A stretch of 59,958 bases of DNA, counting the filler, from Bipalium vagum (Eukaryota), in the NCBI GenBank assembly GCA_037834085.1. It is 3 parts of 3 records of this genome, joined end to end, with 100 filler letters (N's around TTAATTAATTAA, not from the genome) between each part and the next. Parts side by side here need not be neighbours in the genome. Positions count along the whole stretch, not along the records: positions 1 to 21,473 come from JBBMKC010236800.1; 2 more parts are not named here. One strand, written 5' to 3'. How positions within the stretch are numbered: the first letter of the stretch is position 1; the number at the start of each line of letters is the position of its first letter. This document shows, piece after piece, positions 1-48,620 of the stretch. Below the pieces are notes generated by a model. That model was not told where the DNA came from. It saw nothing but the letters and a program-made list of their open reading frames with translations, and ran no database searches. Made by a program: the position numbers and the translations under genes.

Positions 1-109
1 TTTGGGATCACAAATGGGATTGTTTAACAGTATTTGTTGTTGTTCCTTTTGCTGCTATCAGAGGTATCGGCTGAGATGGCTTTGATGAATGAACTCCTCG
101 TAGTCTCCA

Positions 110-2875
110 CAAAACCAACAAAATATATTTTTCCAGATCCAGGATCAAAAATAAATTTTACAAATTATAAATATAAATTAAGAATTCCATTTGTAATTTA
201 TGTAGGTATTGAATGCATCAATCAATCAATAAATTAAATAAAATTACAAAGTAATTATCGAGAAATATTATTAAATGAACCAAGCTTTAATCCAATTGAA
301 AAAATAATAATAATAATTATATTATTAATTATAACAAGGTTCTAAATACAAATATAAATATATGTAAAAAATATTTACAAATACATTTATAAAATTTCAA
401 CAAAAACCATTTTGTATATTTTTAGTTTATTTCTTAGTATCCAAATTTAATTGAAAATTCTGAAAATTATTAAAACTAGAAAATTGTGTGAAAGAGTTTT
501 GTAAATGGCTTATAAATTTTCAATCTTATATACAAAATTTATTAAAAACAAATATTCAACATAACTTATCAAAAGAAAAAGAAAAATATGAAAAAAACAA
601 ATTTGTGGTTTTTGTGAAAAAGAAATTTAGGATATAAATGAAAAAGTGATTGGTTATGATAATTATGAATAAAATTATAAAGGTCCTGCACATTCAAATT
701 GTAGCATTCAGGTAAATGCTTCAAAATCTGAACAAATATTTTTTTCATAATGGATTAGGATATTATTTTCATTTAAAAGATTTAGCAGATGAAAATCAAA
801 TTAATGAAAATACCTCAAATCTAAATGATGCATTTAATTTAATTCTAAAAACATATTGAAAATATATTTCATTTACTATTAATAAAACTTTTAAAGTTTT
901 AGACTCCTTAAGATTTCTTTAGATGGAGCAGCAAAACCATTAGATGAAATTGATAAAGAATATTTAAAAGAATTTGCTTGCGAAGATTTTAATTTAAGAA
1001 ATACAAAGGGAATTTATTCATATGAATATTTCACAGATTTTGAAAAATTTAGTGGAATAAAATTATTAACAAAAGAAGTACTTTATTCCATGTTAAATAA
1101 ATCAAATATTTCTGATGAAGAATATGAAAGATATAAAACAGTTTATACAAAGTTTTGTAATAAGTCATTGGAATAATACAATTTTATATTTAAAACAAGA
1201 TGTGATTTTACTAACAGATATTTTTGAAAAATTTAGAAAAAAAAATTAAAAATTAAGATTCTTGCCATTTTGTTTTTAAATCTGGTTTAACATGGCAACT
1301 AGGATTATTAAAAACAAAAATAGAATTAGATTTAATCTCTGATCAAAATATGTTTGAAACATTACAGGTGAAATCTCAGGAATTCTTGGAACTAGGTATA
1401 TTAAAGCTCATAATAAATATACAGAAAAATCAAAGAATTATTTTGAATTAGTTAAATTGGAAAAATATAAAATTCTGAAAAAATTAGAAAAAGGAAGAAA
1501 TTTATCAAAATTTTTAAAACAAATTATTTATTTTATATTGATGAATCATTGTCATATAAAGATTTTAAATATTAATATAATAAAAATTCAAATAGGAAAA
1601 AATTTTATTTTACAGAAGAAGAATATTGAATATTAATTGATCATTTTTTAAATCAATGTGGGTATAAAATTAAGTGTGACTGTAAAAGGGACTGTAAATG
1701 TGAAATAACATTTGGAATAATTTTTGAAGATGATTAAGAATATAAAAATAAAAAAATGAAAAAATATTGTCAATTGTTCCCATTAGCCCCAATTTCTAGA
1801 AAAGTAGAAGATGAAGAATTACCAGATTATCAAAAAGATTTATTAGAAATAAATAATCAAGCTCATACAAAAGTTTCAAAAATAATTTTAGATATGAAAC
1901 CAAAATGAATTATATAGTTCATTATAAATTTTTTAATTTTTTTGAGCTTTATGAAAGTCACAAAAGTTCATTCAAGAATATCTTTTAAACAAAAACCTTG
2001 GTTAAAAGAATATATAGATCACAATACAAATTTAATTGAAAGAAGCAGCAGCTGATTTCAAAAAAGATCATTATAATTAATGAATTATTCTTTCTTTGGA
2101 ATAACTATGGAAAACGTTAGAAAAAGAGTAAGTGTGAAATTATTCATAAAAAAAGAAGAATCAAAGAAACAAATAAGTAAACCAATATTTCTAAGAATAG
2201 AAAAATTTTTTTAAAACTTAATGGCAATTCATTATACAAAGATCAAACAAAAATGGATAAACCAATTTATTTAGAATTTTGTATTTTATAATTATCAAAA
2301 CTAATTATGCATAAATTTTATTATGATATTTTAAAACTAAAATATAATGAAAATATTGAATTAATTTATCAAGATATTGAATCATTTGTATTAATTATAA
2401 AAACAGAAGATCTTTATGAAGATTTAAATGAATTTAAAAATTGGATGGATTTTTCTGAATATAAAGAAAATGAATTCCCTTCTACTTTAAAACTAAAAAA
2501 AGAGGATTATATAAAAAATAAAAAAGTATTAGGAAATTTATAGATGAAATAAAGGGAGAAATATTAATAGAATTTGTAGCATTAAAATCAAAATCATATG
2601 CCTGTTAAACTAAAAAATTTCAAGTAATCAATTAACAAAAAAATATAAAAATAAAGGTATACAAAAATGTGTTTTAAAACAAGAAATGAAGTTAGAGGAT
2701 TTTAAAAATAAATCAATAAATCAAATTATAACAGAAAAAGATTTTTGAATAAATACAAATATTAGATCTGAGAAACATGATATATTTCTTTTACAACAAA
2801 ATAAAAAATCATTGGATCAATTTGATGACAAAAGATTTTAATTAAATAATATTGAATCTACTCCTGAGGATTAAA
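110..2875 (+). pseudogene. Protein-primed family B DNA polymerase (pPolB) of Polinton type, multiply frameshifted
   Basis: Collinear motifs: FTNYKYKLRIPFVIY, CGFC..YKGPAHSNC (endonuclease VII-like Zn finger), FHNGLGY, LDSLRF, KGIYSYEY, DVILLTDIFEKFR, ISFKQKPWLKEYIDHNT, LMNYSFFGITMENVRKR, degenerate motif C YQDIES (normally YxDTDS), EFVALKSKSYA, FDDKRF. Many stops and frameshifts. Confidence 0.92.
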
Positions 2876-3379
2876 AAACATTTAAAAAAATAGACAGATT
2901 TCTAGGCAATAAAAATGTAGTAAAATTTTAAATATTTTAAGAAAATAGTAAATGATTAATTCAAATCTCTTGATGGAAAAAATGTATTTTTTATTTATTT
3001 ATTTCTTGTTTATTTTTTTATAAAATTAAAAGTAATTTCTTTACCTCAGATTTTTAGAAAAATATCAATAAAAGAATGAAATTAAAAACTAAATTAATAA
3101 ATTATAAAAAATATTAAAATTTTTAAAATTATAAAAAATAAAAAAAATCATTTTTTTTCACCTTTGAAAAAACTCCCCTTTTACACTTAAACGTCATTTT
3201 ACCAACCATTTATTCTAATTTTGAAAAATTAAATTTTTTGAAAATTTTTGAAATCTATATTTTGTGATTGGAAATTTTGTGAATTTTTTAAAAAAATTAT
3301 GTTGAAAGATTTTCTGATTTTCAAAATTTTTACAAATTCTTAATGAATTTTTCAATCTTTTTCACCTACACAAATTTTG

Positions 3380-3660
3380 TTACAAAAATTAAAAGAATTT
3401 TTATCTTCTTTGTGAATTTTATTTGATTTTTTCATGGGTACATCATAAGAATAAAAAGATTTAACTTCTAAATCTTGTCTGATTCCATTTAATGTAGAAA
3501 CAGATATTTCAAACTTTTTAGTAATTTTTTCTTGTGTTAAACTAGGATTTCAAATTATTATTTTTGTAAAATGATCTCAGAAATGTAACTTTTCCAATTT
3601 TATAAAATTAGCAGAATTAAAATTGTCAACATTTTCATAAACATCTAAGAAATTACAAAA
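3380..3660 (-). pseudogene. Small helix-turn-helix protein remnant, probably Polinton-encoded
   Basis: Minus-strand translation NPSLTQEKITKKFEISVSTLNGIRQDL fits an HTH pattern. It has internal stops and is convergent with pPolB. Confidence 0.5.
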
Positions 3661-5689
3661 CTACTTTTTTAAAAAATAATTTTCACTTTAAAATAAATTT
3701 AACAATTCAAAATCATTCAAAATTGCTCACTTATATTTTTAAAATACAAAAATTGATCATAAAAATGAAATTGACAAGCGTAAATAAATAATTAATAATT
3801 AAATTTTAAAAAAATCTATGAATGAACAATTGAAAGTGCCTGAATCTCAGTTAATTAAAAAAGAAAAAAGTCAAATGCAGATAAACAGATGAATAGTCAT
3901 AAAAAAGAAAAAACAGAAAAAGACCAACAATTTTAAAAATCTGTAGATACGGATAATTTAGAAATAGCAACCAAAGGAGCTGTCCGGAACTTTTGGTATT
4001 CAAACTAGAATAATGAAATTCCTGAAAGAACGGCATTTGAATAAGGAACTTTCTTTTCTTTCTATTCAGGAAATTATGAAGGAAATGAAGGAAGACTTTC
4101 CTTCTGACATAATAACGCATTTAACATCCGTAAGTAATATTTAATAATAATAATTTAATATTTATTACTTAATGTTAAAATTAAATTTTTAATAATAAAA
4201 TAAAATTTTTCAGTTAATTTTAAGATACATAAAATTGTTATCTCTGTTTAAATTTAACTTTTTACTAATTTTACTTTAATTTGGTGAATTTTTTAGAATA
4301 AATGATATAAACATTAGGAACAAAGTTTATAATTTTTATATTTAATGAAAATATCAGTTTTATATAAAGTACTAAAATTTCAATTTTTGAAAAAATCTTA
4401 GGAATTTGTTAATTTCATTTATAAAAATGAAAAATAAGTTATTCTTAAAAATCAAATAATTATACTTGCACACAAAAAAATATTAAAAAATATTTAAAAA
4501 CTATTTATCAATATTTCAAATTATAATGTTTATAAATTTATTCAAAAATATAATTATATATAATTATTAAATATATTTTTATTGTAGTTCTTTATTAAAA
4601 ATTTGAAACTCGAAATCGAGAATAGCTGCTATCGCTTCAAACCTCGATATCAAATCAGCAATAGACAAGACCTTCTCCACATAGTCAGAACGCAACATTA
4701 CCTTGGTTTCAAGGTTTTTCAAGATGGTGTATTAGAGGCCAATAAGAAAAGATCCGTCTTCATTAAGAAATTAATCAAATATAAAAAAATATGTTCGTTT
4801 GAGACTAAACGGGAACATAAAATTATTCTAACTTATAGGCTAAAGATAATGCCATCAATTGAAAGTAAATATAATTGTAATGTATTTATAATTATTTTTC
4901 TATTTAGATATAGACAGAAAAGTTTAGAAATTTGTATTTTACAACAAAGATTAGCCTGCATGATAGAGAAAGATACAAAAACAGTTCACAAAATGTAGTA
5001 AAAAGAGCTTTCATCAGACCATTGGGATCTAGAACAAAGAATAGGAAAAGACTAGCTGTCATTAAATCAAATACACTTTTGAAGGATCCGTTGATGGATT
5101 ATTAATTTCTTATATTTGGCAAATAAATATATTATTATTATAAATTAAATTTATTTCTTTTCACTGAAAATTAAAATTAAGTAACAGTCAGTTCAAGATT
5201 GATTAAAAAATGGAAGATGGTTTTAAAGTCAACATAAATTGTTAAAAAAGTTTAATCCGATATACTTGTTTTGTCAATTACGCAGTACTTACGCTTAAGT
5301 ATGTAATTAATTAAAAATTAATTCTTGAAACAAACCCAACCTTAACCCTCAAATTTATTATTTTAAAATTTTGGTAGCCATATAAGTAGTTGTATCTCTA
5401 GCATTTGCCGCATCTTTAAAAAAATTTTTTTGCATTCACGTGTGCGTTGCACAGGCTCACTCAAAAAGTATTTTTGGCTGGAAACGTTAGAGATATAAAA
5501 TAAATAAAAATAAGTAAAAATATTTTTTAAAAAATAAGTAACCAAACTTTTTTCAAATCTCCTTTTTTGACGATTTTTTCATCATTTTGATAATTTTTTG
5601 ACTAATAGCACATTTTTAAAAAAGTGAAAAAGATAAGTAAAATAAATACTAAACAAATAAATAGTAAAAAGTAAATAATAAAAAAATAC

Positions 5690-6900
5690 TAAGGTTCGCT
5701 TCTTGAGAGACAGTCTCTAAATGACTTATTATTTGACTTACTATTTGAACTTGTTTGAGGTGCAGGTTGCAGCCTTTGGTTTAGAGGACAAAGTCCTCGC
5801 AAAGCAAACTAGGCTTAGGCTCTAGCACCATTGGTGCGCCTTATTGAAAGCAGGTTAAACCTGCTTTAAATGCAACTTCGTCTTAACTCGCAGACAATAG
5901 TCCGCTGTGAACTGAAGGTTCATCAAACTTGTTTGAGGTGAATTTTAAAACTAATTTCTTCTCCATTAAAGTCTATTAATTCTCTGTTATCACCAGCCAT
6001 CAAATCAACCAGAAATTGGATATTCTAACAGACGCCCAGTGACTATAAAAGCAATTGATAAATCATTCAAATGGAAGAAGGAGAAAACAAAAGCAACCGA
6101 ATCGTGTCAAAAGCAGTTATACCAGATTCAGATTGTATCAACATTTATCCAGACTAGAACTGAGATCATTTAGACGTATCTACGAAGACAAAGAATCAGA
6201 CAAGGTCACCGTTATTCACAGGATCAATCAAGAAAGGAACACTTGTCACCGTTATTCACCGGATCAGTCAAAAAAGGAACACTTGTAAAAAGTTACTTTA
6301 GTTATATGTTTTCTTTATTTTACTATTTCAATTTGACTACATATTGAAAATTGTAAAATATTTAAATAACTCTAACTGCTTATTAAAATCATACCGGAAT
6401 TAAACAATTGGATAGCTCCCCAATTGTTATTCCAACATCAAAATCATCTTTTTATTTTACTTCTTTTTTATTTTTTGCTTCCTCTTCGTCAAGTAGGGCG
6501 GAGGAGCGCATTTTGAACATCGAGGGCTCTTTTAGCAAGGCTTGCAAAGAGCATATCATAACCTTTTACGGGACTTATCATTAATAATTGCGTTATTGTT
6601 TTGAAATTTGGTTTTGTTCGACAAAATATTTTTAAAAGGTTTTGAATCGTTAAAAAATAAAAGTATTTCGATTAAAATTAAAATTTTTTTGATTTGACTT
6701 AGTGAAATACAGTTTTATATTTTATCACAGTCGCATTTTGAGTTATATTTATTAATCGCACATACACGACCATTACCCAGTCGATTTTAAAATAAACATA
6801 TTTATAAACGCAACCTTTCACACAATCTGAACGTTACACTCAATAAAATCCTTCTGATCTTAATACGAGCCCGTTAAGTTTTGGAACGACAGTTAAAATT
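5690..6900 (+). repeat. LTR-like interspersed repeat inserted in the Polinton
   Basis: GC-richer non-coding block with TATA-like CTATAAAA (~6043) and internal duplications. It shares AAGTAGGGCGG and GCAACCTT..TTACAC motifs with 21840-22120. Ends not defined. Confidence 0.45.
6207..6286 (+). repeat. Tandem duplication of a 40-bp unit (2 copies)
   Basis: caccgttattcacaggatcaatcaagaaaggaacacttgt followed by caccgttattcaccggatcagtcaaaaaaggaacacttgt. Confidence 0.9.
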
Positions 6901-6999
6901 GAAATTAATTAAACTATTACCTTTATATTATAATCAAAACTTAACAATAATATAATTTATTTTTTTTTAATGGTACTAGCTTTTTATCATATATTTAAA

Positions 7000-7330
7000 T
7001 TGGTACTCAACTGAATTAGATATTTCCGAAAATTCGTATGCTCCAGGAGTTAGTTTGAAATTTACTTTTTTATTTTTTCCTTATGAATCTGTAATTTCTA
7101 AATCAATTCAATTATTTTTTTCAGTAATATTCAAAATTGAATTATAAGTTGAATAATAAACTAAACCTAATTCATAGTTTACATTGTTTTTAAGTTTTAA
7201 AGGAAAATCTAATCTGAAGTTTATTTCTGAACTTTTACTTTTTACGATAAATGAATTTGAAAATTTTTGAGATAAAAGGTTTGTTATTTTTCTAACGATT
7301 CTGAAGCAATGTTAGTAACACTTGCGTTCA
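7000..7330 (-). pseudogene. Polinton minor capsid (penton) protein, N-terminal part
   Basis: SFIVKSKSSEINFRLDFPLKLKNNVNYELGLVYYSTYNSILNITEKNN...FKLTPGAYEFSEI matches the Polinton mCP N-terminal pattern (YELGL..F.TYNSI.NI...NN...P.GSYE). It is truncated near 7000. Confidence 0.8.
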
Positions 7331-7439
7331 TTTTTAAAATAAAAAAGAAAAATTTATAGATTTTATTTTTTCAAAATATTTTCATAAACCTTTGGTTTAT
7401 TTTTTTTTGCTTTTTTAATTTATTTAAAATTTTTAAAAT

Positions 7440-7880
7440 TATATGATCAAGATCATCATGACCAGCCATTTTGTAGATAAATATTTTCTTAAAGTTATAA
7501 ATTGATGCAACGAAGTTACTGAAATCAGTTTTCTGAGTTTCTTTTACTTTTTGAACAGCTTTTACAACACCATCTGAAACTCCACCAGCTGCTCCTAAAC
7601 CTGCAAAGATAGCACCAAAAATTGGAATTAATGGAAGAACACCACCTTCATGTAATCCTTCAGATTTTTCTTCATAAGTTTGAACACCTTGGGTGTTTGC
7701 AGCTGCGCTGTGATCCTCAATTTTATTAATAATAATTTTTAATAATAATTTTTAATAATATCTTTAATTTGATTAATTATTATTTTAGATAGATAATATT
7801 TTTCTTCCTTGAAAGTAATATACTTAGGTTTTCCTACATCGATTATGTTTTGTAATTTATCCTCAGTGATTTTTTTATTC
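7440..7880 (-). pseudogene. Adenovirus pX-like / Polinton core protein
   Basis: EGGVLPLIPIFGAIFAGLGAAGGVSDGVVKAVQ (~7555-7650) resembles the GGFLPLIP..A..GA..G...V signature of adenovirus pX and related Polinton ORFs. Confidence 0.7.
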
Positions 7881-8079
7881 ATTTTTTTGAAACAAATTTA
7901 ATTTTTCTCATTAATATTTAGAAAAATAACAAAACTGCTTGATGTTTGGATGGTGGTCTCTCTTTCTCAACTCTTTCCTCTTCTTTTCTCCATCAAGCAG
8001 TTCCAAACACCATTCTTTTCAGTGCTAGCACTTTTTTACTTTTTTATTTTCTTTTTATTTATTTATTTTTTGTTTTGTG

Positions 8080-8970
8080 CTAACACTTTTTCAACTTCAT
8101 GTTTAATAATTAAAAACGATGATTTCTGAAGTTCTGAGCTGCAATTCATTTTTATGAAATCTACCCAAAATCTTTTCACCATTTAAATCTATTAGTACAT
8201 AAACAGTCGGATTTGTAAAATAAATTTCATCTATAATAAAAATTACTTCAGACTATTTTGTTGTATATCCTTTTTCAAATTTATTTTAATATTTAAAAAT
8301 TCTTACATGATCACCAATTGATCACCTCTTGCCAGATTTGTTGGTAATTTGGTTTAGGTTAATTGTGAAACGGGAGAAATTTTATCAGTTTTCAATTTTT
8401 CTGGATTAGCCGAAGACTCTAACAACTTCGTTGGATATTTATTTGCTTCATTAGGGGTTATTCCAATTGATCTATGAATTTTATTATTATAAAAATTAAT
8501 TAAGTTTGGTAAAAAATATAAACATTTTCTATTCCCTTGTTCTGTAAATTTTTTGAACATCCTTTTTTAAGAGTTCTATTAATTCTTTCTATAGCAACTG
8601 CTTTTCCTTCATTTTCTGTTGAATAAATTTATATTTCATTATCATCACAAAAATCTTCAAATGTTTTATAGTAAACTTCTGTGCCTTTATCAACCCAAAG
8701 TTTTTCGGGGACCCTATTTGAATCTGTTACTCGAATATTTTATCAGACGCATCTGTAATTGATTGACTTGTTTTATTTTTTAGAGGAACAGCGAAAGCAA
8801 AAAAAGTATATAAATCGATAACTGTTAGAATTATTTTGTAATCTTTTTCTCCTGGAACAAAAGTTAAATTTGCTGACTAAATATCATCCTTATTAACATT
8901 TTAACTTTAAGAAACATTTTTTGAATTTCTAAACTATTTATGAAGTTCATTTGGTAATTGTTCTCTTTTA
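8080..8970 (-). pseudogene. Polinton retroviral-like (rve) integrase with possible C-terminal chromodomain start
   Basis: ELHK..KDDI*SANL, FAFAVPLKNK, PEKLWVDKGTEVY, GKAVAIERINRTLK, YNNKIHRSIGITPNEA, GDHVRI..KFEKGYT, GRFHKNELQ, then HEVEKVLA. Confidence 0.92.
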
Positions 8971-9069
8971 TTTGGTGAGAGAATTTTTGAATTTTCATAA
9001 AGTTTCTCATTAGCGAGCGTCTTCTACGTTCTAACCAAAGGTGCAAGCAACTTTGATTCTCTTGGTAAA

Positions 9070-9450
9070 CCTAATCATATACATATCTTTACTTTCATAA
9101 TTAATTTTACAATTGCTCATTCTAGTTTTTCTCTTGGAGTTGGATTTTGGATGTTGTTCATTTCATGAATTATTTCTACATCTGCAACATGTCTATCTTT
9201 TAAATCTGTTAACATATATTTTACATCATGTTTCATTGCTGCTTGATCTATTCGATTTATTGGAATTGAATCATGTTTTGGAATTGGAGAAATATTTTAA
9301 GTTTTATTTTCTTCATAATTATTTACTATCTCATCATAGTTTTCTAATCTTTTATCTATATGAGTCCTGGCCCAATGAAATTCGCGACCGGATTTGTTTT
9401 ATTAAAAGAATTTAAAGATTTTAAATGAAATTCTCATGGATATTTTCCTG
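9070..9450 (-). pseudogene. Parvovirus-type phospholipase A2 (PLA2X) domain
   Basis: EFHL..NFIGPG/THIDKRL (one frameshift; Ca-binding loop), PINRIDQAAMKHDVKY (catalytic HD at 9225-9230), DRHVADVEI, and C-terminal MKVKICI*LGL. Confidence 0.85.
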
Positions 9451-10769
9451 TTGTAAATTTATTTAAAAATTTGTTGTTTGTTACAGCTTCACAAAATTAG
9501 TGACTATTTTATTCTAAAAAATATTCAACATCATAAGCAAAAATAAAAAGTATTTTTTCAAATTACATATATTTATTAACATTTTAAGCCAAATTTTAAG
9601 TTACGAATTAGGTAATATTTACGAATTGATAATATTAAAGTTAAATAAACACCAAATCGATTATTAAACACTGAATTGGATCAATCGAAATATAAATCAA
9701 ACACTGACTCGAATTATTAACTAAGAAAAAAAATTTTATTAAATATATTTTTAATAAATTTGACAATAAGATTTATAATTACAATTAAAATTTGTGATGA
9801 AATCCGGAGAAGAAGGTTAACTTAAGACATTATTACATTAATTAATTAATAACCTATAATCCGTAAAAGAATGATAGTTTTTAATTTTGTATTTTTATTT
9901 AATAATCGGTTCAATGTGAAACTAAAAGTTCATTATTAATTATATTTAAATATTTAGTAATAAGTTATTATAGATTTAAAATCAAATCTAATAAACAGAG
10001 AAATAAAATATTTTTACTATTTTGATAATTGGAGTCGATTTCTGTTTCCTTTCTCCTTGCATCTACGTAGTAGCAATTGTTTTCATCTACTTGCTTCTTT
10101 GGTTAAACTTTTAGTGATATATTTTGCGTCCTCTTCCTGATTTGTTTTTGGTCGTTTTCAAACTGAAAAGCTTTAGAAATTATGTTATCTTATTTTTTGT
10201 ATTTTCTAAAGTTTGTAACCTAATGTTACTATTTTTAGATTTTACTTAAAAATTTGTTACTATAAATTTTGTACTTAAACTTTATTTAAAATTTTAGTTA
10301 AATAATTATTTATACAGACTCTATGTTACTGATTAATTTTTCCAAATTAATAATCGAAATTATTACTTTTTAATTATCATAATAATAATATAAAGGATAC
10401 AAGGATTTTAGGTGTCTACGGGTTTTAACTTTTACAATAAAAACAACAAACAAAACTACACAAAATTATATTTTTTATGCATAATAACAAAAAAATTTTT
10501 CATAATTATTTTTCCCTTTAATGCATTTTCATAATCAATTAAATCAGTTTTTACTGCTTTATTTATTCCCTTCATTCTGTTTAGTTTGCCAAGGACACGA
10601 ATTTAAAGGTTATTTGAAATCTTTTTATTGCTTTTGAAAAAAGAAATTTGATCAAATGTAAAATTCGGAAATGTTGGGATTGACAATAGCAAATCATTTA
10701 TTTATATTGACCATCATAAGAATCCAGTGCATATGGTCACTGACCCTAAAAATATATAACCACTATATA

Positions 10770-11410
10770 TACTGCCAGTCAATATTTTTCGCACTGTAAG
10801 TATAATACAATATTAAAAAAATAAGTAAGAGTTAGAAAATTGATACTTTCAGTAATAAATGTTAAACTTCAATAAATTGTTATTGTGAAATAAATTTAAT
10901 ATTTATGTAATTTTTTGAATAATATAAGTAGTAATAAAAATTTTCAAAATTTTAAAAGTGGACAAATTTTTTCGCACAGATAAATATTTTAGTATTTATA
11001 AAAAACAGAATTATTTCAGACATGGTTTATGATGGACCACAATTTAACAATCTGATATTATCCAATCACAGATATTATCCATATAATAAACAATGAAAAA
11101 AGACAAAAAATAATTGATTTATATGGATCACTGAGAGCTCGTTTTAACTTCCAAAGGGAATTTGTACAATGTGTAATATTTTGTTAATAAATAAAAGGTG
11201 TGCGAAAAATTTTGTCCTTTTTTAATTTTCAGTATTTGAATTTCTTAACTTTATATATATATTACAAACATTATTTTAAGATTACTTACTTAAAATTTAC
11301 ATAACTAATGTATATTACTAAATATCGCTTATGGATAGATTTCATTTCATTCACACAGTAACAAAATTCATATAAAATAGTAACTGCGCGAAAATTTTTA
11401 TCCGGCAGTA
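10770..11410. mobile_element. Non-autonomous Tc1-like element with IR-DR architecture
   Basis: Flanked by TA. Outer IR tactgccagtcaatatttttcgcac vs (rc) tactgccggataaaaattttcgcgc. Inner IR ggacaaattttttcgcaca (10960-10978) vs tgtgcgaaaaattttgtcc (11199-11217). Confidence 0.8.
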
Positions 11411-11582
11411 TACGATATTTTAATAAATACTTCTTAATTTCATGTAAAAATATTCCATTGATCCGTCTCCTGTCGAACTATTTCCTGATTCCTTCTCCAC
11501 AATCAAAACCACTTTCCAAAAAAATGAGATTTTTAATGTAAACAATTTGAATGCAAATTAAGAATTTTATAAATTTAATAAA

Positions 11583-12518
11583 TGTTACAGCACTCTTACA
11601 AAATACTATAAACTGCAATTCAAAATATGACCCAAAAACAATACTTATAAAAAACTACAGATAAAAAACTAAAGATTCTTGATTATTTCCATCTACACCA
11701 ATGTTTGAGCCCTACGGAAAAGCTTTTTAACTTCCGCAATCAAAAAACTCTTTTGGTAGACGATTCTCCAGATACTACTTGACACCACAAAAATCTAAAT
11801 CGTGTGAACTGCAGGTTTCAATCGGGCTCTATCTCGGCGTGGAGATATAATTTGATTAATGGCTATTAGGGAAAATAGCTGTCTCTAAGCGTAGAGATTG
11901 GTGATGGTAGACCAATACGCCTATATAAATAGACGGCTATTCCCAGAAAGCCGCCCCGAAATTTTAGTATTGTTTATATTCGTTGGAAGTGGAAAAAATA
12001 TTCAAGACTTTTACGATTGAGAGGATTCATTACCAAAAAGACGTTATATTTCTACGAAGAAGATTTTTGTCACGAAGTGGATTATTCGAAAGATTCAGTA
12101 ATGATTTTTAGCTTATGAATCCCTAGGAGACCTGAAAAGGGCCTAGTGGACCACCCAGGGACCCCTTGTCGCTCCTGGTTTTATTTTCTTTATTTTTAGG
12201 ATTAATATAAACTTCCTTTTATCATTTTGAATTTGTGATTTTGGATTATTTGTTTTTTTCTTTGATTATCAGATAACTGAACGTATTGATTTTAGACCTT
12301 TGACGATTTTGACTGTGACTTTACGACGTGTAGTGATTGTTTTTGCGTTATTCAATAAAGTTTAATCGTGATTGTTTTCATTCAATTAGGCTGCGGATAA
12401 AGTATTATTGTGGGAGTTTTGATTCAAATCGAGTTTAAATTTGTGCAGCGACAATAGAATTACGAACGCAACACATTAAAGTGATGAGTTTTTAATATAC
12501 GAGTGCAAGTTACTTACA
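11583..12518 (+). repeat. Probable solo LTR
   Basis: Begins TGTTAC and ends TTACA, with TATA box CTATATAAAT (~11921), AATAAA (~12354) and higher GC than the flanks. No matching target-site duplication found. Confidence 0.4.
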
Positions 12519-12926
12519 AAGTATAATATTATAATCAGAAATTTAAATGCTATTCATTATAGGCCAATGGTATTGATATTTATTACTGAGATAAAGCGAG
12601 AATATTTCAGAAATGGAAATAAAGATGATTAAACATGAGACTCAATTAATAACAATCATAACTAAGTTTCTATTTTTAAAACAAACAATTTATCAAATTC
12701 AAGTTTTTTGATTTATAAAAATTGAAATGGACTTAATAATGGCTTTCCTATTGGTAAATCTCAACACAAATAAATAGCTTTAGATAGGTATACTTTTTTT
12801 TTCAAAGATTTTGAAAATAAAATTTTTTTGTTTTGCAAAATTCTTTTTTACAATGAAATATTACAATTAATTATTTTTGGGTTCATTTTTTGTTTAAGCC
12901 TAGTGCATTGTAAGTTCATTCCTACT

Positions 12927-13254
12927 TTGGTCGTCTATTTTTAGACGAAGACCTTTTAAGTATTTGAGTTGGTTTGATGTATTCTCTGCTGTAGACTTTG
13001 TGGCTTTAGAACCATCAAATGAAGCCTAATATTTAACCAGGTTAATTTATGACGATCACGTAATCATCCATAAATGAAAACCTATAACTTTTTATCGTAA
13101 TTATTATTAAATTGTTTTTCAAAATTAATGTTTAAAAATTATTTTAATTAAGATATATAATATTTCGAATTTAGTTAATTATTAGTTTTTAGGATTTTAA
13201 GTTAAAGACCAACTCCAATACGTAAAAGATCTTCGTTTAAAAATAGATGACCAA
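12927..13254. mobile_element. MITE-like element with ~50-bp terminal inverted repeats
   Basis: ttggtcgtctatttttagacgaagaccttttaagtatttgagttggt vs rc of right end ttggtcatctatttttaaacgaagatcttttacgtattggagttggt. Confidence 0.8.
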
Positions 13255-13503
13255 TTGGAACGCGCTAACTAAAAGTTATTAAAAGCTGTGATCAAATTTT
13301 GAAAAAATCATTTTATTTAATTATAAATTTCCACATAAATCAATATACAATAAAAATACTGACATTACCGCAAATATCCTCTTTCTAATAAAACTATTTT
13401 ACTAAATAAAATATTCACACATCAAACAAAGACGTGAATCGAGAGACAATAAAACGATAGCAACTCAAAATTATACATGAAAGCTTATTGACATAAAAAT
13501 TCA

Positions 13504-16404
13504 TCATTTAGATAACAGTGATATGGAATAGGAACGACCGTTGGGATTGTGAATTGCAGTGATCTCTGGTTGAGTGCAGGCCCACTCATACCAAACCGCG
13601 TGATTGTTACTGACTCTCCAAATATGGAATTTTAAAATTGACTCGGCTTTCACTTGAATCGGTTTGATGACAGGGAATACTATCGGGAACCAGGAAAACA
13701 TGTCTGGAGAATGCCAATCAGGGTGAATACCTTTAATTTGGTAAGAGATATGATCAAAAATTCTTTTTAAAAATCGTTTTATAGGCTTACTCATGGTTAT
13801 GTCTTTATAAAGAATGCAATGAAAAAATCCAGCGAATCCATGGATTACACCGTCTTCCTTGATTTCAAATTGAATGGCCTCGTATCTATCATTTGACTGC
13901 GTTAAATCCTTTCTGGGATGGTTGAACGTGAATACTGGTTGAACTGGGGCCAACAAGTGACAATTCAATAATCTCACAACATAAGGAGTTTCCATAGAGG
14001 CCTGAAAATCATTTTTAGTAATTTAATAAAATTAATTCCTTTTTCAAGATATTAAATATTCTGTTTTACTAATTTCTAATCTCATTCATTTTTTAATCAA
14101 TAAATATATAAAATATCATTCAAATACTGATATTTTTAAATAAACAAAAATAAAATTATATACATGATCTTTGATTCTATTACTTCAATTCATTTAAATT
14201 AATTAATAATGCTTACATATTTATTCTTTTTTACACATCTAGGTGCCTTTTGGTTACTCATAAACGAATACAGCTTTGTGGATTGCAAAGGAGCGATATA
14301 AGAGGTATAACTAGATGGAATCGAAATTCCACCTGGTTTCAGAAAATGTTGAGCCCCATCAAGACATTCTGGACTAAGTTCATTGTCCCCGAACGATCCC
14401 AGAAGTTCGCTAATAAAAATATCGGCTTTGGTAGGCAAAGTGACTTCTCTCATATCACCGGGAAATAACTCCACGTCTCGATCGACCCAATCTTTTTTTA
14501 CCCTCTTTGTTAGATATGAAACAGCGTTAGGGTTCTTTTCCACAATATAAATTTTCACATCACAGTTGGCTTTGTCAGCCGCTCGCAGAGCTGAGTCAAC
14601 CAACGGACCACGACCAGCTCCAAGAACCATTATTGCTACTTTTTCTTCTTCTAATGTCACAACATCTGAGCCACCGATTACACTGACAAATGTCTTTGTA
14701 TCGACTTTTTCTGTTTTGACTTTTTTTCGTCTCTCAACGACATCATTGATGGCCAACACCGTGGCTTTTTCGTACGCATCGTACTTGTATGGATCCAGCT
14801 CAAAGATCGAATACGTGGAACTGGGTAAGTGATCAGCTAGTGGCTGGAGAGGATCTTGCAAAAAATCTTCCATGTCTTTACTGTGCTTTTCATACGCTGT
14901 CATCGGGTCGCGATTTGTCCACAGCCATGTGAGATATTGTCGGTAAGACAAGTAACCGTGGGGATTGGAAACATCACCGGACACGACAACTTGTATTTTC
15001 ATCTGAGGTTCGATAATAAATAGTTTAAGAATTTAGTGAAAGAAAATACCTTGAAAAATCGATTTATCAATTGTTGACATGCTGTCGATAATACTGGATA
15101 TCCTTTCTTGTTTGTCAGAAATCGATCGGTTTTAATTTCCAGTGCTGCAATCGGTTCCGAGTACCAATGATTAATTACATTCTCTGACATGTCGCATTTT
15201 GGAATCGTCAACATAAGTTTGAAATTATGGATGGAATCTCCAAGTAAAATTGAGAACTCGCGCCACCAATCCAATGGCGTATTTTCTATATCTATTTTTG
15301 GCAAAAATTGGTTACAACAATATTATAAACGAAACAATTACCTTTGTTCCCGTTGATGCAATCAAATTCGCTTTCGTAGCACATTGGTATTCCTATCCAA
15401 ACCTAATGAAAAATTTGAATTTATGGAAAATGAATTTAAATGTTATTTTAAAAAATCTTACTCTAAAGGAAATATAATCATTTGACATGAAACTTGCTAA
15501 TACTCGTGCTAAGTTAGCATTGTTTCCTTTAGTCAGTCTGATAAGCACAGCTGGAAATCCTTGATAGGATGCCCATTCTAATTCCTCTATTAGAGCCTTT
15601 AAAAAAATTATCGTGTGGTTTTATAAATATTTATTTTACTTTTTCCGATGTTTTGCGAAAACTTGGAAGATGATGATCCAAGTCTATCCATGATGATGTT
15701 TTGGCCACAAGTCCATTAATTATCGACGAGTCTGAATAAAAATTAATAAGGAAACGAAATATAAAATATCAAGCATGCTAAATTTTATTATACCACTGTT
15801 CAATATTTTGTCAGTTCTAGAGAAAGTCTATTCGATTGAACAGAAAAATGTAAGCTTGCTTTTCTTAAATTTCAGTTAATATCAACTGATAACAATATTT
15901 TACTTCATCAAACAAAGCTAATTAATAATCATCTATATGTAAAATTAAAAGGCTAATTTATGTTTAACTCATGTTATGCTTATTAAGAATTTAAATAAAA
16001 TTTTGTTTCTTAGATTTTATATATAAAAAATAATTTCAAATAAAGAACGTTAAGAGCACTATTATTGTAACACTAAAATTATTCATTCAGAAAAAATTAA
16101 ATAAGCACGTGGCTCCACAAGATCAATAAAACTAATTAAGGCCTTATGTAAAATATTCAATCCTTACTATTGGTTTGTAGGAAGTTAAGTCCAGATGATT
16201 TTTCAGTTCTTGAATCAATATCAATATTTGAGTTAAACCTTTCAGAACCTTTATAGATATCAGCGAAAATAAAACCGTACCTAAATACAACTTAGTTTAA
16301 GATTTTATCAACTTAATCTACCCTAAAGAGCACGCCCATCTGTGATCATCTTCAATATTTTCGACTAACTGAATATCAGCTCCAAACAATGATTTTACGT
16401 TCAT
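13504..16404 (-). CDS. PRMT5: Protein arginine N-methyltransferase 5 (multi-exon)
   Basis: ATG at 16404. TIM-barrel exons (FSRTDKIL, AKTSSWIDLD, EELEWASY, FLTNKKGYPVLS), Rossmann fold (PLQPLADHL..TY.IFE.DPYKY, MVLGAGRGPLV, SELLGSFGDNELSPECLDGAQ) and beta-barrel (HGFAGFF, MFSWFPI, HNPNGRSYSI). GT-AG introns, e.g. 16281-16321, 15003-15049, 14002-14216, 13731-13790. Confidence 0.97.
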
Positions 16405-18454
16405 CGTGAATTTTAAATTATAAATTACTTAAAACAAATTAAGCTAAAATGGTTAATATAAATTTTATTTACATATCTTTTATTAAAAATATTATAGTAT
16501 AAATTCTCTTTATACATTAATTGTAATATGAACAATTTAGAAATAGAATTTTTTCGATGTTTTTATGTCAATAATAAAAATAAATTTATCAAAAGTATAT
16601 TTTCAAATTATATTTGTAGAAATCTGATAAATTACAAAAAACAATATATTGCTATGTAGTGGCAGCTAATTCTAGTGTTAATTAACTAATGATTCCAAAA
16701 CCAATGAATAGGAAGTTTGAAATCATGCGTTTATTTCAGAGTAGATGTTTACTATGGAATATGGTGTTTAAAATTTTCTTTCTTTTAAGTCTTCGCCCGC
16801 CTCTTAGAATGTTGCTCGCGAATATCAGTCTTTCCTTTGATATCAGAATGCTCAATTTATTGGTTTGGTTATCCTGGTGTGGGGCTTGTACACTGATCAA
16901 TCTAAATGATTTTATTTTCCTCACATTATTCTATTGATAGGATTCTCAAATATGTTGGGTTTTGGAGCAATAATAATGGTAATAGTAATTATACTAATAT
17001 TGAAAATAATAATTAGTAGTAATAATAAAAATTAATTATATTACTTTATTTGGAAAGTTAATAATAATAATAATTTCTAATTATTAATAATAATAATGAT
17101 AATAATAATAATAATTTTTTTATTAATAATAATATTTTTTTTATTAATAATAATAATTTTTTAAATAGATTTTTTTCGTGTCATTTTTATAATGACAAAA
17201 TCCCGCTGTGGGATTATTTTTTGATGAAGCTAATGGATTCCTATTGGACCCTATGACCTCTAGGGTAATTTTGAAATCTATCTCCGGAAGACTTTGATTG
17301 AATCAATTCAAAAAGATCACAATTGAATGAAGATAGGGAAGTTCATTTAGCATTTCAAGACTTTACTTAACAAGCTATTATATCTTTTAAATGATAGTAT
17401 GACCAAAGTAAACTGCTCATAGACATGGTTTTCTACAAGGCTGTGCATAATTTCCGTTCCTGCTTCATTTTTAGAATGAGTCATTCCATAAAAACCATGT
17501 CTCGAAAATCCTCGCAGAACAGAATCAGTAGGCAACACGGGATTCAATCTGATTATTTGTCGTTCACTGTTTTTCATTGTGAGATTATCGGAATTCCAAT
17601 GAAACAGAATCATGTAGAACCACGTAAGACAATACAATGATTATTACAATGGCAATATAAGACTGATTTTAAAAAAAAGCATTGTCTTTATAAACAATCA
17701 TGATTTTGGGCCCTAAAGAGGACCTTATTTCGTTCTCAAAATTTAACTTACAAAAATTAATGTATATTAACAAAAGGTGACCATGAAAAAATCAGGCACC
17801 TAGTTTATATATTAACCGACTAGATAAACAAAAGTGACCCTGGGAGTATGAGAACGGAATTTTAACCCAAAAGGATTTTTTAAATGATACTATCACAAAA
17901 ATAACAAATGATAATGAATACCTTTATAAATCAATAAATAATATTAAAATTAAATTAAAAAGTTTATTTGCAGTTGATAATTATAAAAACATGTATGAAA
18001 AAATTACACCTATAGTCTGTTGGTATTCTTCTTGGAAATTTTCAACAGTAGATATTATAAATTCCAAAAACTTGTAAATCAATTTAACAAAGTTAGGATA
18101 TTTGGTTGGAGAAAATTCTTTTTTCAAAAAGAGAATTTACAAAAATATTAATTGCTGACAAAAGTTAATACATTATCAACAATGTTATAAATTTTGGAAA
18201 GAGTTTCATAATGCACTACAAAGTGGTTTTATAATAAATGAAAAACCTTCAATAGATTTTAATATACAACCTATTTTACCATCTTTAACTTTGGATTTAA
18301 ATACTTCTAATTTAACGAAATCCATTACTCCATCAATTATAGGTAACACATTAATAATAAATAAAATCCCAGTTTTAATTATTAAAGAAAAAGAAATAGC
18401 ATTTTTAAAGTATAGTAATCCAAATGATCCAAAATCAGATAAATTTTATAATTC

Positions 18455-19720
18455 TTTCCCCATTCGCATTTTGTGGGTTTTATTATAAAACCTGCTATTT
18501 TAATCCTCTTTAACACTTCTTCCATGTCTCTCATATGTGTTTCAAAATCTGGGGAAAAAACGATGATGTCATCTATATATACCATGGCATGAGCAATATA
18601 TATTAACATGAGATTTATAGCTCTTTGAAATGTTGCAGGTGCTTCTTTAAGACCGAATGGCATGTTGTTAAATTCATACAAGCCATTTTCAGTTATAAAT
18701 GCTGTTGCTTCTCGTGATTGCTCGGCTACTTTGATGTTTATATAACCTGATTGTAGGTCAGTTGTGGTAAACAGTTTTAGCTGTCCTCAATCACTGGAAG
18801 TAAGTAGTTATCTTTTACGGTGACTTCGTTCAGTTTAAGGTTATCGATGCATACATGCCATTCACCACACTTCTTTTTTACTTCTATCGTTGGTGAAGAC
18901 CAGGGTGATGAACTGGGGCTGATAATACCTGTTTCTAGCCAGTAAGCTATTTGCTTATCCGCCTCTGGTTTTAAAGTGTGCGGGGTACGGTAAGCACGTT
19001 GGTTAATTGGTTGTGGATTGGTGATGCGTATTTCGTGTTGTAAGATATTGGATGTGCCGACATCAAATTCATGTTTAGCAAATGCATCTCAATAAATTCT
19101 TAACAACTGGATAAATTGCTTTTGTTGAATGCATGTAAGGGTAGGTGTAGTGACTTGAACCGGTCCATAGATATTTTTGGCTGGAGTTGTAGTATCTGTG
19201 TGTGGAACATATTCATTAATAGTTCCCACTCTCATACCTTGATGTATTTTTCGTGGCAGTGTCAAAATTTTTTATTCATGTGGGGATTCGGTTACGATTT
19301 ACTACAGCCAAGGTTGCTTGTGTTGTTAAAGTGTTGCTCTTAACAAATCTCTCCGATTGTTCAAAAATCATCTCTTGTCCATTCGGCAGATTTGTATCTA
19401 GTATGAATATTTGTTCATGTCGTTTATGGCTTTGTCTAGAACAATAGCTATGTGATCTTCATTTCTTACCGCATTTTTATATCGTCTTGGGTGTATCTTG
19501 TATTTGTATCTTCATATACAATCCTGCAGAATGATGAATCCTTTTCTGTCTACCACAGCTGGACTCAAAATTTGTAATTTTTGGTGCATATCGTTGATTT
19601 GCTGACAGTAACTGTTGGACGCTGAACTGTTTTGTTCACGCTTCCTATGCCCCATACTGCATTAATATTTAGTGCTGTTTCCGCAGCGCTTCTGCTTAAC
19701 TTGAACTCATAAAAATATAT
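18455..19720 (-). mobile_element. Degenerate Ty3/Gypsy LTR retrotransposon fragment (gag remnant plus reverse transcriptase)
   Basis: QPINQRAYRTP, GIISPSSSPWSSP, TDLQSGY, TAFITENGLYEFNNMPFGLKEAPATFQR, VYIDDIIVFS, IKPTKCEW. It is truncated after RT, and the gag part is weakly supported. Confidence 0.9.
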
Positions 19721-21473: not shown

Positions 21474-21573
21474 NNNNNNNNNNNNNNNNNNNNNNNNNNN
21501 NNNNNNNNNNNNNNNNNTTAATTAATTAANNNNNNNNNNNNNNNNNNNNNNNNNNNNNNNNNNNNNNNNNNNN
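21474..21573. other. Artificial contig-joining spacer
   Basis: N44-TTAATTAATTAA-N44, exactly 100 bp, with stop codons in all six frames. Confidence 0.97.
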
Positions 21574-23958: not shown

Positions 23959-26900
23959 TCACCCGTTACCTTTTCTGATATAAACCTCCAGAAGACGAGC
24001 CTGAAAAACAATATATCAATTGACTGGAAAATTCAAAATTCTATTTCCATTTTCAAAATCAGTTTAAATTTAAGAGATACAAATTTAAAAAATGGTTCTC
24101 AAGTATGCAAAATATTTTTTACTTTGATTATAATAATAATCAATAATTACTAAAATGGTAAATATTAATTTTAAAAAATTCTGATAAAAGAATTATTAAT
24201 AATTAGGAATATAAATATATACTAATTAATAAAAAAATCAATAACACTAAAAAATTCCTAAAAATTAAATTATAATAAAAAACTAATTATGAAAAAAAAT
24301 AATAAAAATAATATTTAATTAATAGGTAAAAATTAAAACCCTAAATATTACTTTTAATTTTTTATATCGATGACGTAAATTAATAAATCTAAATTTTTTT
24401 AAAAAAAAACCAAAATTTATCAAAAAATAAAAACTCAAAGATTCATTTTAAATAATCAATACAAAAAAATTATAAATTAAGATAATAAATAAATATAAAA
24501 AAACTAAGAATAATGAAATAATCAATAAATCTTAACATTAACTAATAAAATTAATAATGAATAGTTATTAATTAATAACTCAAATAAAAATGTCAAAAAA
24601 TAATAATTATAAATTATGTGATGAAATAAATAAATCAAAACAATAAATAAATAAATTTTTACTTGTGAATTATTTAACTTTAAAAGTGTCCAAATGTCAT
24701 CACGAATAATTTTGTGCAATTCAACCATACAAAGAACTGATTCTTTTCTGACTTGACTTTCTTTATGGTTCACCACCTATTCGGAAAAAAGACCATTACC
24801 TGAGATTAATCACAAATAAAAAGGTCTTGTACTATCGATAATGCTTGACATAAACTGATCACATCAGCCTCGATTGAATTGCGATTTGAATTTTTAATAA
24901 GCTTGATCAACATTTTCAAAGCCGGCAAGCATAACTGGTTTTCCGATCCATCAGAGATGACATCGATCAGCATTTTGAGGCACACTTTACGTGGCATTGT
25001 TGACGTCAACACTCGACTACATTCTTCAGCAGCTTTGATTACAGATTTTTCCGAATCTTTGTGAGCTTCAAGAACTTTCAAAATCGTCAATTGGGTATAT
25101 TCCATAAATCGAGGAGCTTGACTTTTTGCCAATTCTTGTAAGACTCTTAACGATTGCGCTCGGATGTCGGACTGTAGGTTTAGTGAAAAGGTTAATAATT
25201 TACAATAATAAACAAAAATCAAATATTATAAATCAAAACAAAATATCATTTTTCAAATCAATAATAATAAAACTGTTATTATTGAAATTAGTAATAATAA
25301 AATAAATTAATGGAAAACATTAAAAAATGTTATTATATTTTAAATACAGCTTTACAATAGCAAAAGTCTGCAAAAATTAATTCGAAAACAAAATATAATC
25401 TCTCACATGAATCAAATAGATTGGGAGTTCAAATAACAATTTCTTAAGTGAAAAATATTGATCGAAAAGAAAATCTAAGAAATTATATTTCGAAATGTAA
25501 ACATTATGAAATGTAAAAAGTTCAAAAGGAAAACACTTACCGAAACATAGTAGAAACAGCTTATAAAGGACAATACAAAAAAATCAAGAAAACCCCAATG
25601 TGAAAATTACCCGTATCAATTCTTAAAAAATGGAAATTAATTTCTCCCTAGGGTTTTAATAAAATGATAATTAAATTTTTTCCTTTTCCCAATTTTACAA
25701 AAATTAGATAATAATTACAGAAAAATGAGGAATGTTTGTACTTAAAATGAAAGGTCAAATGTACAGATTATTTTTTATTTATTATTCCAATGTTATTATT
25801 TATATAAAGTTAGAAAAGCAACAATAATTTAAGAAAAAAATTGATTATTATTGAATTAGGTTGGAAAATATTAAAAATAAATCAAATAAAAATTCCACCC
25901 TGGAGGTTACAGCCATTTCCTAATATATGAAAATGTTTTGAATCTTAATAAATTTTAAAAGAATAACATAAAATAACACTGTAAAAATAAAAAAGATCAG
26001 AATAAATTTTTTATCAATAATCAAAATAAATTGATTAATATTAATATTATTATTATTACCAAAACCGATATCAAGATTTTCCAAAAACTTTTCGTTTTAT
26101 TACGACAGAATAATCGCAATAATACAGTCCCTAACAAAATGTACCAACTTATTACAATATCCATTGGCATTTCACTTATCGAAAAAACATTATTCTTATT
26201 CAACTAATTGTTTCGATAACAATGAAACATGAATCAATTTTTAATATTTTCTCGTCGGATTCTATTGATAGTTTAACGTTCACACGTTATTATTATTATT
26301 ATTCAGTGATTAAGAGAAAAAGAAATATTTTTATTAAATGTATATAAAAAGATCTGTAATCAAAGTATCGAGAGAAGACAAATAATATTTAGGTTCTTCT
26401 TTTCTAATTTATATTAACAAGATTTATGTCCAAAATGTCAACAGAAAATATTTTTAGTATAAATACAATGATTAAAATCGCCAATTATTTATAAATATTT
26501 GTGAACTTTAAGAAAAATCAATTTGAAATATTTATATCAATATTTTAATCAGAGTCAATAAAAATAAAGTTCAGTTCAATTTTATAATATTATATTGGAG
26601 AAATTTTTAATTTTGAACTCAAATCCCCGGGGAATAGGAAAAGCAAATCAATCTCCATGACCATTTTTTAAATAATTATGAGGAAAAAAATCCATAAAAT
26701 CAATAGTAAACAAACTTTTATTTTCTGATGTTCTAAATTAACCTAAATTGAATCAAATAAGTTCACAGTATTTTAACAAAATCAATCAAAATTAATTAAT
26801 AATAAACTCTTCAAGTAAATACCTCATTATCTCCCATGGTTTCCAGTAACAGAAAGAGTAATGTTTTAAAATGTTCATCCCAATCAGTTGGTGTATTTTC

Positions 26901-41509: not shown

Positions 41510-41609
41510 NNNNNNNNNNNNNNNNNNNNNNNNNNNNNNNNNNNNNNNNNNNNTTAATTAATTAANNNNNNNNNNNNNNNNNNNNNNNNNNNNNNNNNNN
41601 NNNNNNNNN
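41510..41609. other. Artificial contig-joining spacer
   Basis: N44-TTAATTAATTAA-N44, identical to the first spacer. Confidence 0.97.
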
Positions 41610-47599: not shown

Positions 47600-48620
47600 T
47601 AGGACAAGGAAACTACATAGGTAAATAAACTTAATCACTTTCTATATAACCACATTCTGCTTCCGGGCATTTCGGCCATCGAGTTATCACAAAAGAGACC
47701 ATTTTCGAAGAAAGTGGTAGGCTTTTCATTGAAAATATCTTGAACTATTCGTTTAAGATCATCTTTAGACTCAATTCTCTGACCTCGCTTCTTTTAGAAA
47801 TGAAACAAGAAAATCAATATGAGCCAAATCAGGGCTATAAGGTGGATGTAAAACCAGCACAAATCCTTGTAACCGTATGACATCCATAGTTCGATTAGCT
47901 GTATGCCAGAGATTTTTTGATTCTTTGGCTTCTGTTGCAGCCTTATCAGATCACTAAGCAGTGCACAGTAGTAGTGAGATTCGATGTTTCCTTGGACAAA
48001 GTCAATTTTGATCACAACTTTTGAATCCCAGAATACACTGAAAGTTAGGCATTTCAGGTGAGACGTCCCTGAACGAAGTATGTTTGGTGCACTTTCGTCA
48101 GGAAATACCCATTCACGAGACTCACGCCTATTGTATGGAATGTAAAGACTCAATAGAGTCTCGTCCTCTGTTACAATATTCTTCAAAAAACTCTGTCCAA
48201 GAGAATGAAATAAGTGCAGATTGTCTTGACAAGCTTTCATGCGGTATTGTCGCATCTCCACTGTCAAAAATCGTGGAAAAACCTACTACTTAATTTTCTG
48301 ACTTACCGACATGTTTCTCAATTAAGTTTAGTTGACAGCTCTTTCTGGGAAATTCGCCTCTCTTCTTTGTCAATTATCTTCGATTTTTAAAATTTTTGTT
48401 CCCCAATTTCTGTAGGTCGTCCACTTGTTCTCGTCAAGCACATTGTTTCTGTCACAGGAAAACTCTCTGATCCAATTGTATACAGTCGCTTTGCATGGTG
48501 CTTCATTCCTATATGCTTCCTCCTGTTGAGAAATAATTTTCTTCTTTTTTGTCATTTTCAATTGCAATAATTGTATGACGCTTCGGAGTTCCACTTGATG
48601 ATACATTTTTTTCAAAAAGT
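47600..48620 (-). mobile_element. Near full-length but disrupted mariner (DD34D) transposase
   Basis: HTH ELRSVIQLL..EAPCKATVYNWIREF, IVTEDETLL, SREWV, SVFWDSKVVI, HPPYSPDLA. Confidence 0.9.

Follow-up and report, generated by a model that had tools for sequence, protein, structure and literature searches.

Relic of a predicted phospholipase A2-integrase gene in a dead Maverick of Bipalium vagum

Introduction

Does the integrase of a Maverick (Polinton/adintovirus) travel inside the virus particle? A gene in which an entry enzyme is joined to the integrase bears on this question. A Maverick virion is described as not observed in the available part of one report (10.64898/2026.06.19.733378). 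The window, i.e. the whole stretch of DNA analysed here, is 59,958 nt of the Bipalium vagum genome (GCA_037834085.1), with filler included; it consists of three parts joined end to end, and positions 1–21,473 are from JBBMKC010236800.1. An earlier note on this DNA proposed that a PLA2 domain and an integrase on the minus strand lie in one reading frame and represent a PLA2X-integrase polyprotein, possibly with a chromodomain. The questions raised by the locus are whether the ancestral element encoded such a single protein, and what a fusion of this kind would mean for the virus.

The gene relic and the Maverick around it

The window is 26% GC and of an animal type of DNA. A decayed Maverick spans positions from about 900 to 9500, with PolB motifs on the plus strand and the PLA2-integrase, a protein-X-like (pX-like) open reading frame and a penton relic on the minus strand. 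P0003, an intact relative of 449 residues, served as a query for the gene at positions 8127–9487. The features are as follows.

9365–9487, minus strand: N-terminal piece of PLA2 with the calcium-loop motif, out of frame with the core (tblastn of P0003 residues 10–50, 68% identity, E = 1.7e-13)
9075–9374, minus strand: PLA2 catalytic core and C-terminal helices, three stop codons (PF08398, E = 1.4e-4)
8958–9074, minus strand: junction, with a Gly-x-Gly-type candidate protease site and the linker, one stop codon, in frame with both domains
8703–8957, minus strand: integrase start with the leading part of the catalytic core, in the PLA2 frame, five stop codons (rve, E = 0.025; tblastn)
8566–8715, minus strand: middle of the integrase core with the second and third catalytic positions, shifted frame (P0003 residues 266–315, 48%, E = 6e-9)
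8378–8560, minus strand: end of the integrase core and connector, shifted frame (P0003 residues 318–378, 42%)
8127–8318, minus strand: integrase C-terminal SH3-like domain (P0003 residues 386–448, 55%; beta-barrel matches for model residues 380–449)
7371–7751, minus strand: separate open reading frame in which a Gly-Gly motif is followed by a hydrophobic stretch resembling protein X (assignment at the level of a lead)
6994–7299, minus strand: penton (minor capsid protein) relic (tblastn of the penton-like open reading frame of locus L001, E = 2e-6, 26% over 102 aa)
895–2900, plus strand: protein-primed PolB relic with approximate limits, probably starting further left (by-eye match of several motifs to PolBa of Adinto6405)

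The minus-strand frame from 9374 to 8703 (P0001, with stops read as X) displays PF08398 at residues 37–96 (E = 1.4e-4) and the start of the rve core at residues 170–217 (E = 0.025), and there is no frameshift between the two. The His-Asp of the PLA2 core is at position 9230 and the second Asp motif starts at 9194. The linker begins with a sequence of the type G.G.PR.(A/S)K, as it does in 9 of 11 relatives checked, and from the junction (9074) to the first catalytic position of the integrase the window frame is free of Met codons. The main tblastn piece scores 183 bits with P0003 versus a best score of 25.4 bits on ten shuffled windows, thus the match across the junction is not due to chance.

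The frame has nine stop codons in 224 codons. All nine are in columns where intact relatives carry a residue, and eight are one base away from a codon for the commonest residue; they therefore have the look of point decay. P0003 aligns from residue 10 to residue 448 in five pieces (9487–9365, 9398–8646, 8715–8566, 8560–8378 and 8318–8127), which gives four frameshifts, near 9370, 8710 and 8563 and between 8375 and 8320. One of these is inside the PLA2 domain, and the calcium-loop motif is consequently in another frame. The other four pieces contain at least four further stops, for at least 13 in the whole gene. Because of the four frameshifts and these stops, the single reading frame proposed in the note is limited to the junction, i.e. 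the PLA2 core, the linker and the integrase start.

The 9365–9487 piece has a clade-specific insert in common with P0003, P0004 and P0007. About the first nine codons are not recognisable, and the 5′ end of the window's PLA2 appears to be lost or altered beyond recognition. Of the integrase's three catalytic positions, one carries a substitution in this copy. Judged from its sequence, the gene is dead, and the window copy in itself is an ordinary dead relic. The ancestral gene almost certainly encoded one protein of about 440–450 residues. By homology, this protein started with a parvovirus-type PLA2, which a short linker joined to an rve integrase core with an SH3-like tail. In the nearest intact relatives the region corresponds to one colinear open reading frame, which bears out the ancestral fusion proposed in the note; these relatives have neither a fixed stop after the PLA2 domain nor a separate integrase start.

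The name given in the note does not hold in two respects. The pX-like stretch belongs to a separate downstream open reading frame (7371–7751), and 22 of the 24 proteins of the window's clade terminate four residues beyond the last integrase motif. A search of three frames of positions 7700–8300 with an HMM built here found no chromodomain behind the integrase (best E = 0.72; positive control E = 6.5e-9), nor is there one in the window's clade. The protein is therefore termed a PLA2-integrase rather than a PLA2X-integrase-chromodomain.

The 7371–7751 sequence has by-eye likeness to PLA2X C-termini and ESM Atlas matches of 0.86–0.87, in Preplasmiviricota, with one cluster at 20% Adeno_PX; Pfam gives no match and BLASTP to the pX-like open reading frame of L001 gives E = 0.17. 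This reading frame may have begun near 7880 in another frame (minus strand, 7371–7880). Pfam searches of the six X-read frames of positions 1–13400 found PF08398 alone, and the X-read PolB pieces gave no PolB match. No major capsid, packaging ATPase or protease gene was found in the window with queries from L001, L002, P0066 and P0129 (best E = 0.14); the element may run off the left end of the window, or there may have been a deletion. The window has no inverted repeat pair enclosing the relic, and the other end of the element is probably outside the window. A protein-mode search of a phage collection gave no match. By its gene content the region is a dead Maverick (Polinton/adintovirus) copy.

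Fused proteins in intact relatives

The note anticipated that similar fusions may already exist, and this is the case. Two adintovirus proteins are labelled "PLA2-integrase" in the part of the Buck et al. 2024 supplement (PMC11071296) available to us. Among the matches listed in the searches described below, 191 proteins have PLA2 before the integrase in one chain; most are full-length, some are truncated and two are without the integrase start.

The first search for relatives gave 48 matches among 1689 candidates. Precomputed annotation shows both Pfam families in 21 of the 48, and the HMMs built here find both domains in 28 of the 48, with a chromodomain in none of the 28. Alignment A2 has 23 members, each with a match to both Pfam families. 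A profile search gave 56,899 proteins at E ≤ 0.001, and 34 of the best 150, which were examined, have both domains, one of them in reverse order. The nearest relatives of the window sequence are P0003 and P0007, and these share the PLA2 inserts of the window sequence, as does P0004.

A second and more distant fused family is represented by P0053. A search with its N-terminal 140 residues gave 230 matches; all 120 of the matches listed are fused and 104 of these 120 display a chromodomain. In the ESM Atlas, three clusters of 184, 111 and 72 members have both families; the taxa are mostly Preplasmiviricota, from few records. By these matches the PLA2-integrase design is common among such viruses.

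The integrase appears to have another partner as well. Three integrase-chromodomain proteins (P0066, P0093 and P0129) lie behind an adenain-like protease at a Gly-x-Gly, with weak Peptidase_C5 matches (E = 0.014–0.092), which points to the occurrence of protease-integrase fusions.

Several proteins have additional features. The order is reversed in P0116, which has the integrase, then a chromodomain and a C-terminal PLA2. P0002, P0006, P0008, P0009, P0011, P0018, P0022 and P0025 display an N-terminal C2H2/U1-like zinc finger followed by a Gly-Gly motif; zf-U1 is matched in 3 of 23 fused proteins, and the other such zinc fingers were assigned by eye. Stand-alone PLA2s often begin with DUF5679.

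Catalytic residues and structural models

Fifty-nine fused proteins were examined for catalytic residues. Among the 55 that cover the PLA2 site, 52 keep all four of the His-Asp/Tyr/Asp residues. The calcium-loop Gly-x-Gly is kept in 33 of 52 proteins. The integrase triad is complete in all 55 of the 59 proteins that cover it. Both halves thus look active in relatives, as far as sequence can tell.

The AlphaFold model of P0003 (pLDDT 79, pTM 0.50) has two domains, joined by a linker of low confidence at residues 166–175, where pLDDT is below 50; there is no confident packing between the halves. The integrase half resembles foamy virus integrase (Z = 19.2, rmsd 4.7, 236 aligned residues) and Ty3 integrase (Z = 18.6, rmsd 5.1, 238 aligned residues), and fold matches among viral models include the MELD virus integrase and mavirus MV02 (E = 5.7e-11). 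Whole-model fold searches were taken up by integrase matches and are hardly informative on the PLA2 half. The model of the stand-alone PLA2 P0267 ranks a rice PLA2 first (Z = 7.8, rmsd 4.2, 91 aligned residues), which is in the noise range.

The junction and a proposed mechanism

The junction displays Gly-x-Gly or Gly-Gly in 183 of the 191 proteins. The linker varies from a few to over 200 residues, and in the shortest fused forms the integrase begins directly after Gly-x-Gly. The motif also ends stand-alone PLA2s, the PLA2 of locus L002 (where an ATPase gene is next) and canonical PLA2X, and because it is found at the end of PLA2 without an integrase it is not specific evidence for cleavage. 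Four positions ahead of the presumed cut, Lys or Arg predominates, which is unlike the adenovirus protease rule. For both of these reasons, cleavage at the junction is considered plausible only.

The proposed mechanism is packaging of the integrase by fusion and its release by the viral protease. The PLA2 half would be a capsid-core protein that carries the integrase into the assembling particle. At maturation, an adenain-type viral protease would cut at the Gly-x-Gly that ends the PLA2 domain. On infection the PLA2 would breach the endosome, and the freed integrase, already beside the genome, could integrate it without new gene expression. The mechanism as a whole is judged somewhat probable. 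Adinto6405 carries the fusion and also encodes adenain, which is in favor. In the accessible part of Born et al. 2018 (PMC6048507), native mavirus virions hold the rve integrase MV02 together with MV13, a hydrolase in cleaved form, and the mavirus protease has GG|X and GX|G as cleavage sites. Against the mechanism are the retention of the calcium-loop Gly-x-Gly in 33 of 52 proteins only and the window itself, in which the searches for a protease, an ATPase and a major capsid gene gave no match. Integration does not depend on fusion, since 116 of the best 150 integrase matches are without PLA2.

It is possible, if unlikely, that the protein is not cut. PLA2 would then stay on in place of the helical N-terminal domain of other Maverick integrases, and may aid membrane passage of the genome-integrase complex or oligomerisation. 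The integrase of the window's clade has no N-terminal domain of its own, at a location where 39 of 135 PLA2-less integrases have an extension of 21–74 residues, and the basic residue before the presumed cut is a misfit with the adenovirus rule. However, 74 of the same 135 start within 20 residues of the same motif and therefore are also without an N-terminal domain, whereas P0063 and P0068 have both PLA2 and the extension. The length of the linker is free, and the P0003 model, with its pTM of 0.50 and linker pLDDT of less than 50, gives no confident contact between the halves.

The fusion may also be a tolerated compaction, in which PLA2 and integrase genes, which often adjoin, fuse by loss of a stop codon, an existing protease site separates the products again, and packaging gains nothing. 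The two genes adjoin or overlap in L001, as they do in P0267/P0040; the tree described below has fused forms mixed among unfused ones; and unfused PLA2s also bear the junction motif. Yet the fusion is retained in entire diverse clades, the window's clade having it in 30 of 32 rows. The integrase is also fused to a protease and once, in P0116, is joined to PLA2 in reverse order, and the partners with known domains are virion proteins, several long extensions of an unknown kind aside. This explanation appears improbable.

That the window element had separate genes with a frame shared by chance or decay, as the stop at the junction (9077) and the heavy decay of the copy might suggest, is very improbable and is refuted by the nearest intact relatives, which are single colinear open reading frames with a homologous linker, as well as by the lack of a Met after the junction.

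An entry enzyme joined to the integrase, with catalytic residues intact in many diverged relatives, is genetic evidence for spread by particles and for integration straight after entry.

History of the fusion and a possible frameshift

A FastTree tree was made from 85 integrase domains sampled from the collected set, 43 fused and 42 unfused. The fused/unfused label requires eight changes on the tree, and at least three of the changes are forced by strong branches. The fused forms do not share one origin according to an AU test on 42 of the 85 rows (LG+G4, quick search), which rejects a single fused clade at p = 0.0011, although some "unfused" rows are truncated gene calls, e.g. P0075, which has a PLA2 remnant. 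Gain and loss of the fusion are indistinguishable because the tree is unrooted.

A genome scan matched 27 stretches, of which three were confirmed, at two loci (L001 and L002), and the genomic context rests on these two. L002 (JBBAFU010000024.1, positions 7881–13665) is in a Castellaniella bin, probably mis-binned; it is Polinton-like and has PLA2, ATPase, protease, capsid and penton-like genes in a row. L001 (CBDDTI010000304.1, region 8001–9432) is an intact-looking Maverick on a contig in a bacterial bin. Its PLA2 open reading frame (8001–8519) has a stop codon just beyond the junction motif. The integrase frame, which is +1, opens at 8467 and overlaps the end of PLA2 across a run of seven A residues at 8496. 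It has no ATG before 8623, a position past the first catalytic residue; near-cognate codons are at 8485, 8524 and 8575. RNA structure downstream of the A run is weaker than in shuffled sequences (z = +1.2 to +1.9), which speaks against a structure-stimulated shift.

The tails of stand-alone PLA2s were examined for an integrase start in another frame. A first test gave 4 of 50, which by count is at chance level. A second test covered 42 distinct tails, and another frame of 10 of them could code for the integrase start motif; at p ≤ 0.05 there are six in +1 and six in −1, with two in both, compared to 2.1 expected per frame, and control tails gave 6 of 40 and 1 of 40. The second test is post hoc, as the motif was picked after the result of the first was seen. 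The pair P0267/P0040, the sole one among 109 × 92, displays an exact −1 overlap of 12 codons (none in three shuffles), and the P0040 integrase has a Met of its own. Lys-Lys is found behind the motif in 29 of 58 stand-alone PLA2s versus 5 of 166 fused proteins, which fits A runs and also the basic tail of PLA2X.

The L001 overlap is a lead for programmed frameshifting, which would occur in relatives and not in the window's clade; homopolymer error, a private mutation or independent initiation would also account for the frameshift data. A broader proposal, which is tentative, is that a large group of animal Mavericks deliver integrase in the manner of retroviruses, as the tail of a virion precursor. 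There would be several routes to this. The integrase would be joined in frame to PLA2, in at least two lineages, or in frame to the maturation protease; where PLA2 seems to stand alone, it would be reached by +1 or −1 recoding on a run of A residues immediately after the protease site. One Gly-x-Gly release site would serve all. If this is true, many of the integrase genes that are taken as "separate" and lack a start codon would be frameshift products. For annotation, there are Maverick integrase gene calls, that in L001 being one, which start past a catalytic residue and are possibly truncated.

Comparison with known systems

In retroviruses and LTR retrotransposons, integrase is synthesised at the C-terminal end of Gag-Pol, a virion precursor. 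The integrase fold described here is shared with foamy virus and Ty3, and the proposed mechanism would parallel the Gag-Pol polyprotein. The differences are that this is a DNA virus, that a phospholipase or a cysteine protease takes the place of Gag as carrier, that there is no reverse transcriptase, and that processing is only predicted.

The two records in the Buck et al. 2024 supplement are Adintovirus nemertoderma6405 (Adinto6405, BK066529), from an acoel worm data set, and Adintovirus sediment15303 (Adinto15303, BK066759), from sediment. Among 59 "PLA2" entries examined in the supplement there are two PLA2-integrase and four PLA2X-Adenain proteins; the term "PLA2" has no occurrences in the main text as available. 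In the same partial text (PMC11071296), a −1 slippage is proposed for Penton and Hexon-Adenain and not for integrase, and the canonical adintovirus integrase is defined with a C-terminal chromodomain. The ancestral window protein was like the BK066529 and BK066759 proteins in having PLA2, a Gly-x-Gly junction, an rve core and an SH3-like tail with no chromodomain. Those two proteins are intact and have very short linkers, while the window copy is dead; unlike them, the window's subgroup (P0003, P0004 and P0007) carries two inserts in PLA2, and its linker is longer. On visual comparison, the Adinto6405 protein is similar to P0019 and P0020 of the window's clade, and its element has an Alpha PolB, as apparently does the window relic.

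PLA2X of Alpha adintoviruses is defined by Starrett et al. 2021 (PMC8502044), where the word "fused" is not used in the available portion. It has the same parvovirus-type PLA2 domain as the window gene and the same terminal Lys-x-Lys-x-Gly-x-Gly motif. The PLA2X chain, however, runs on into a basic region and a protein-X domain, whereas in the window the integrase follows and the pX-like open reading frame is separate. Mavirus MV02 and MV13 (Born et al. 2018, PMC6048507, seen in part) are alike in that the particle of a related virus holds both an integrase and a hydrolase that is processed; they differ in being encoded by separate genes, in the alpha/beta hydrolase fold of MV13, which is another hydrolase fold, and in the protist host.

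The fusion is not shown in the available parts of PMC3671162, 10.64898/2026.06.19.733378, PMC11131425, PMC5803895, PMC11161782, PMC12220804, PMC4061559 and PMC8097293. "PLA2-integrase" has no occurrences in the main texts searched, and a discussion could be held in subscription papers, Repbase or other supplements. PLA2-integrase is therefore not new, being labelled in two records, and apparently it is not discussed in the literature searched, to the extent that this was accessible. The additions made here are that the fused forms are not one clade, the protease-integrase fusions, and the start-less integrase frame of L001 as a lead for frameshifting.

Other sequences in the window

Other sequences are present outside of the relic. 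Host PRMT5 exons are at 13504–15322 (minus strand; PF05185, E = 3e-61) and an LTR-type reverse transcriptase fragment is at 18382–19088 (minus strand; RVT_1, E = 8e-22). Both are flanked by two inverted repeat pairs about 10.5 kb apart, 10162–10269/21213–21320 (74%) and 10419–10482/20900–20967 (81%), which are possibly two copies of a small transposon. The N runs at 21474–21573 and 41510–41609 have an identical 12-base AT linker in the middle and are an artefact, not genomic sequence. Further along are a HEAT-repeat exon at 24806–25225 (minus strand; E = 5e-7), a mariner-type transposase fragment at 47794–48282 (minus strand; Transposase_1, E = 5e-6) and a single-exon cadherin-repeat (protocadherin-like) open reading frame of 834 codons at 53099–55603 (minus strand), the last assigned by eye.
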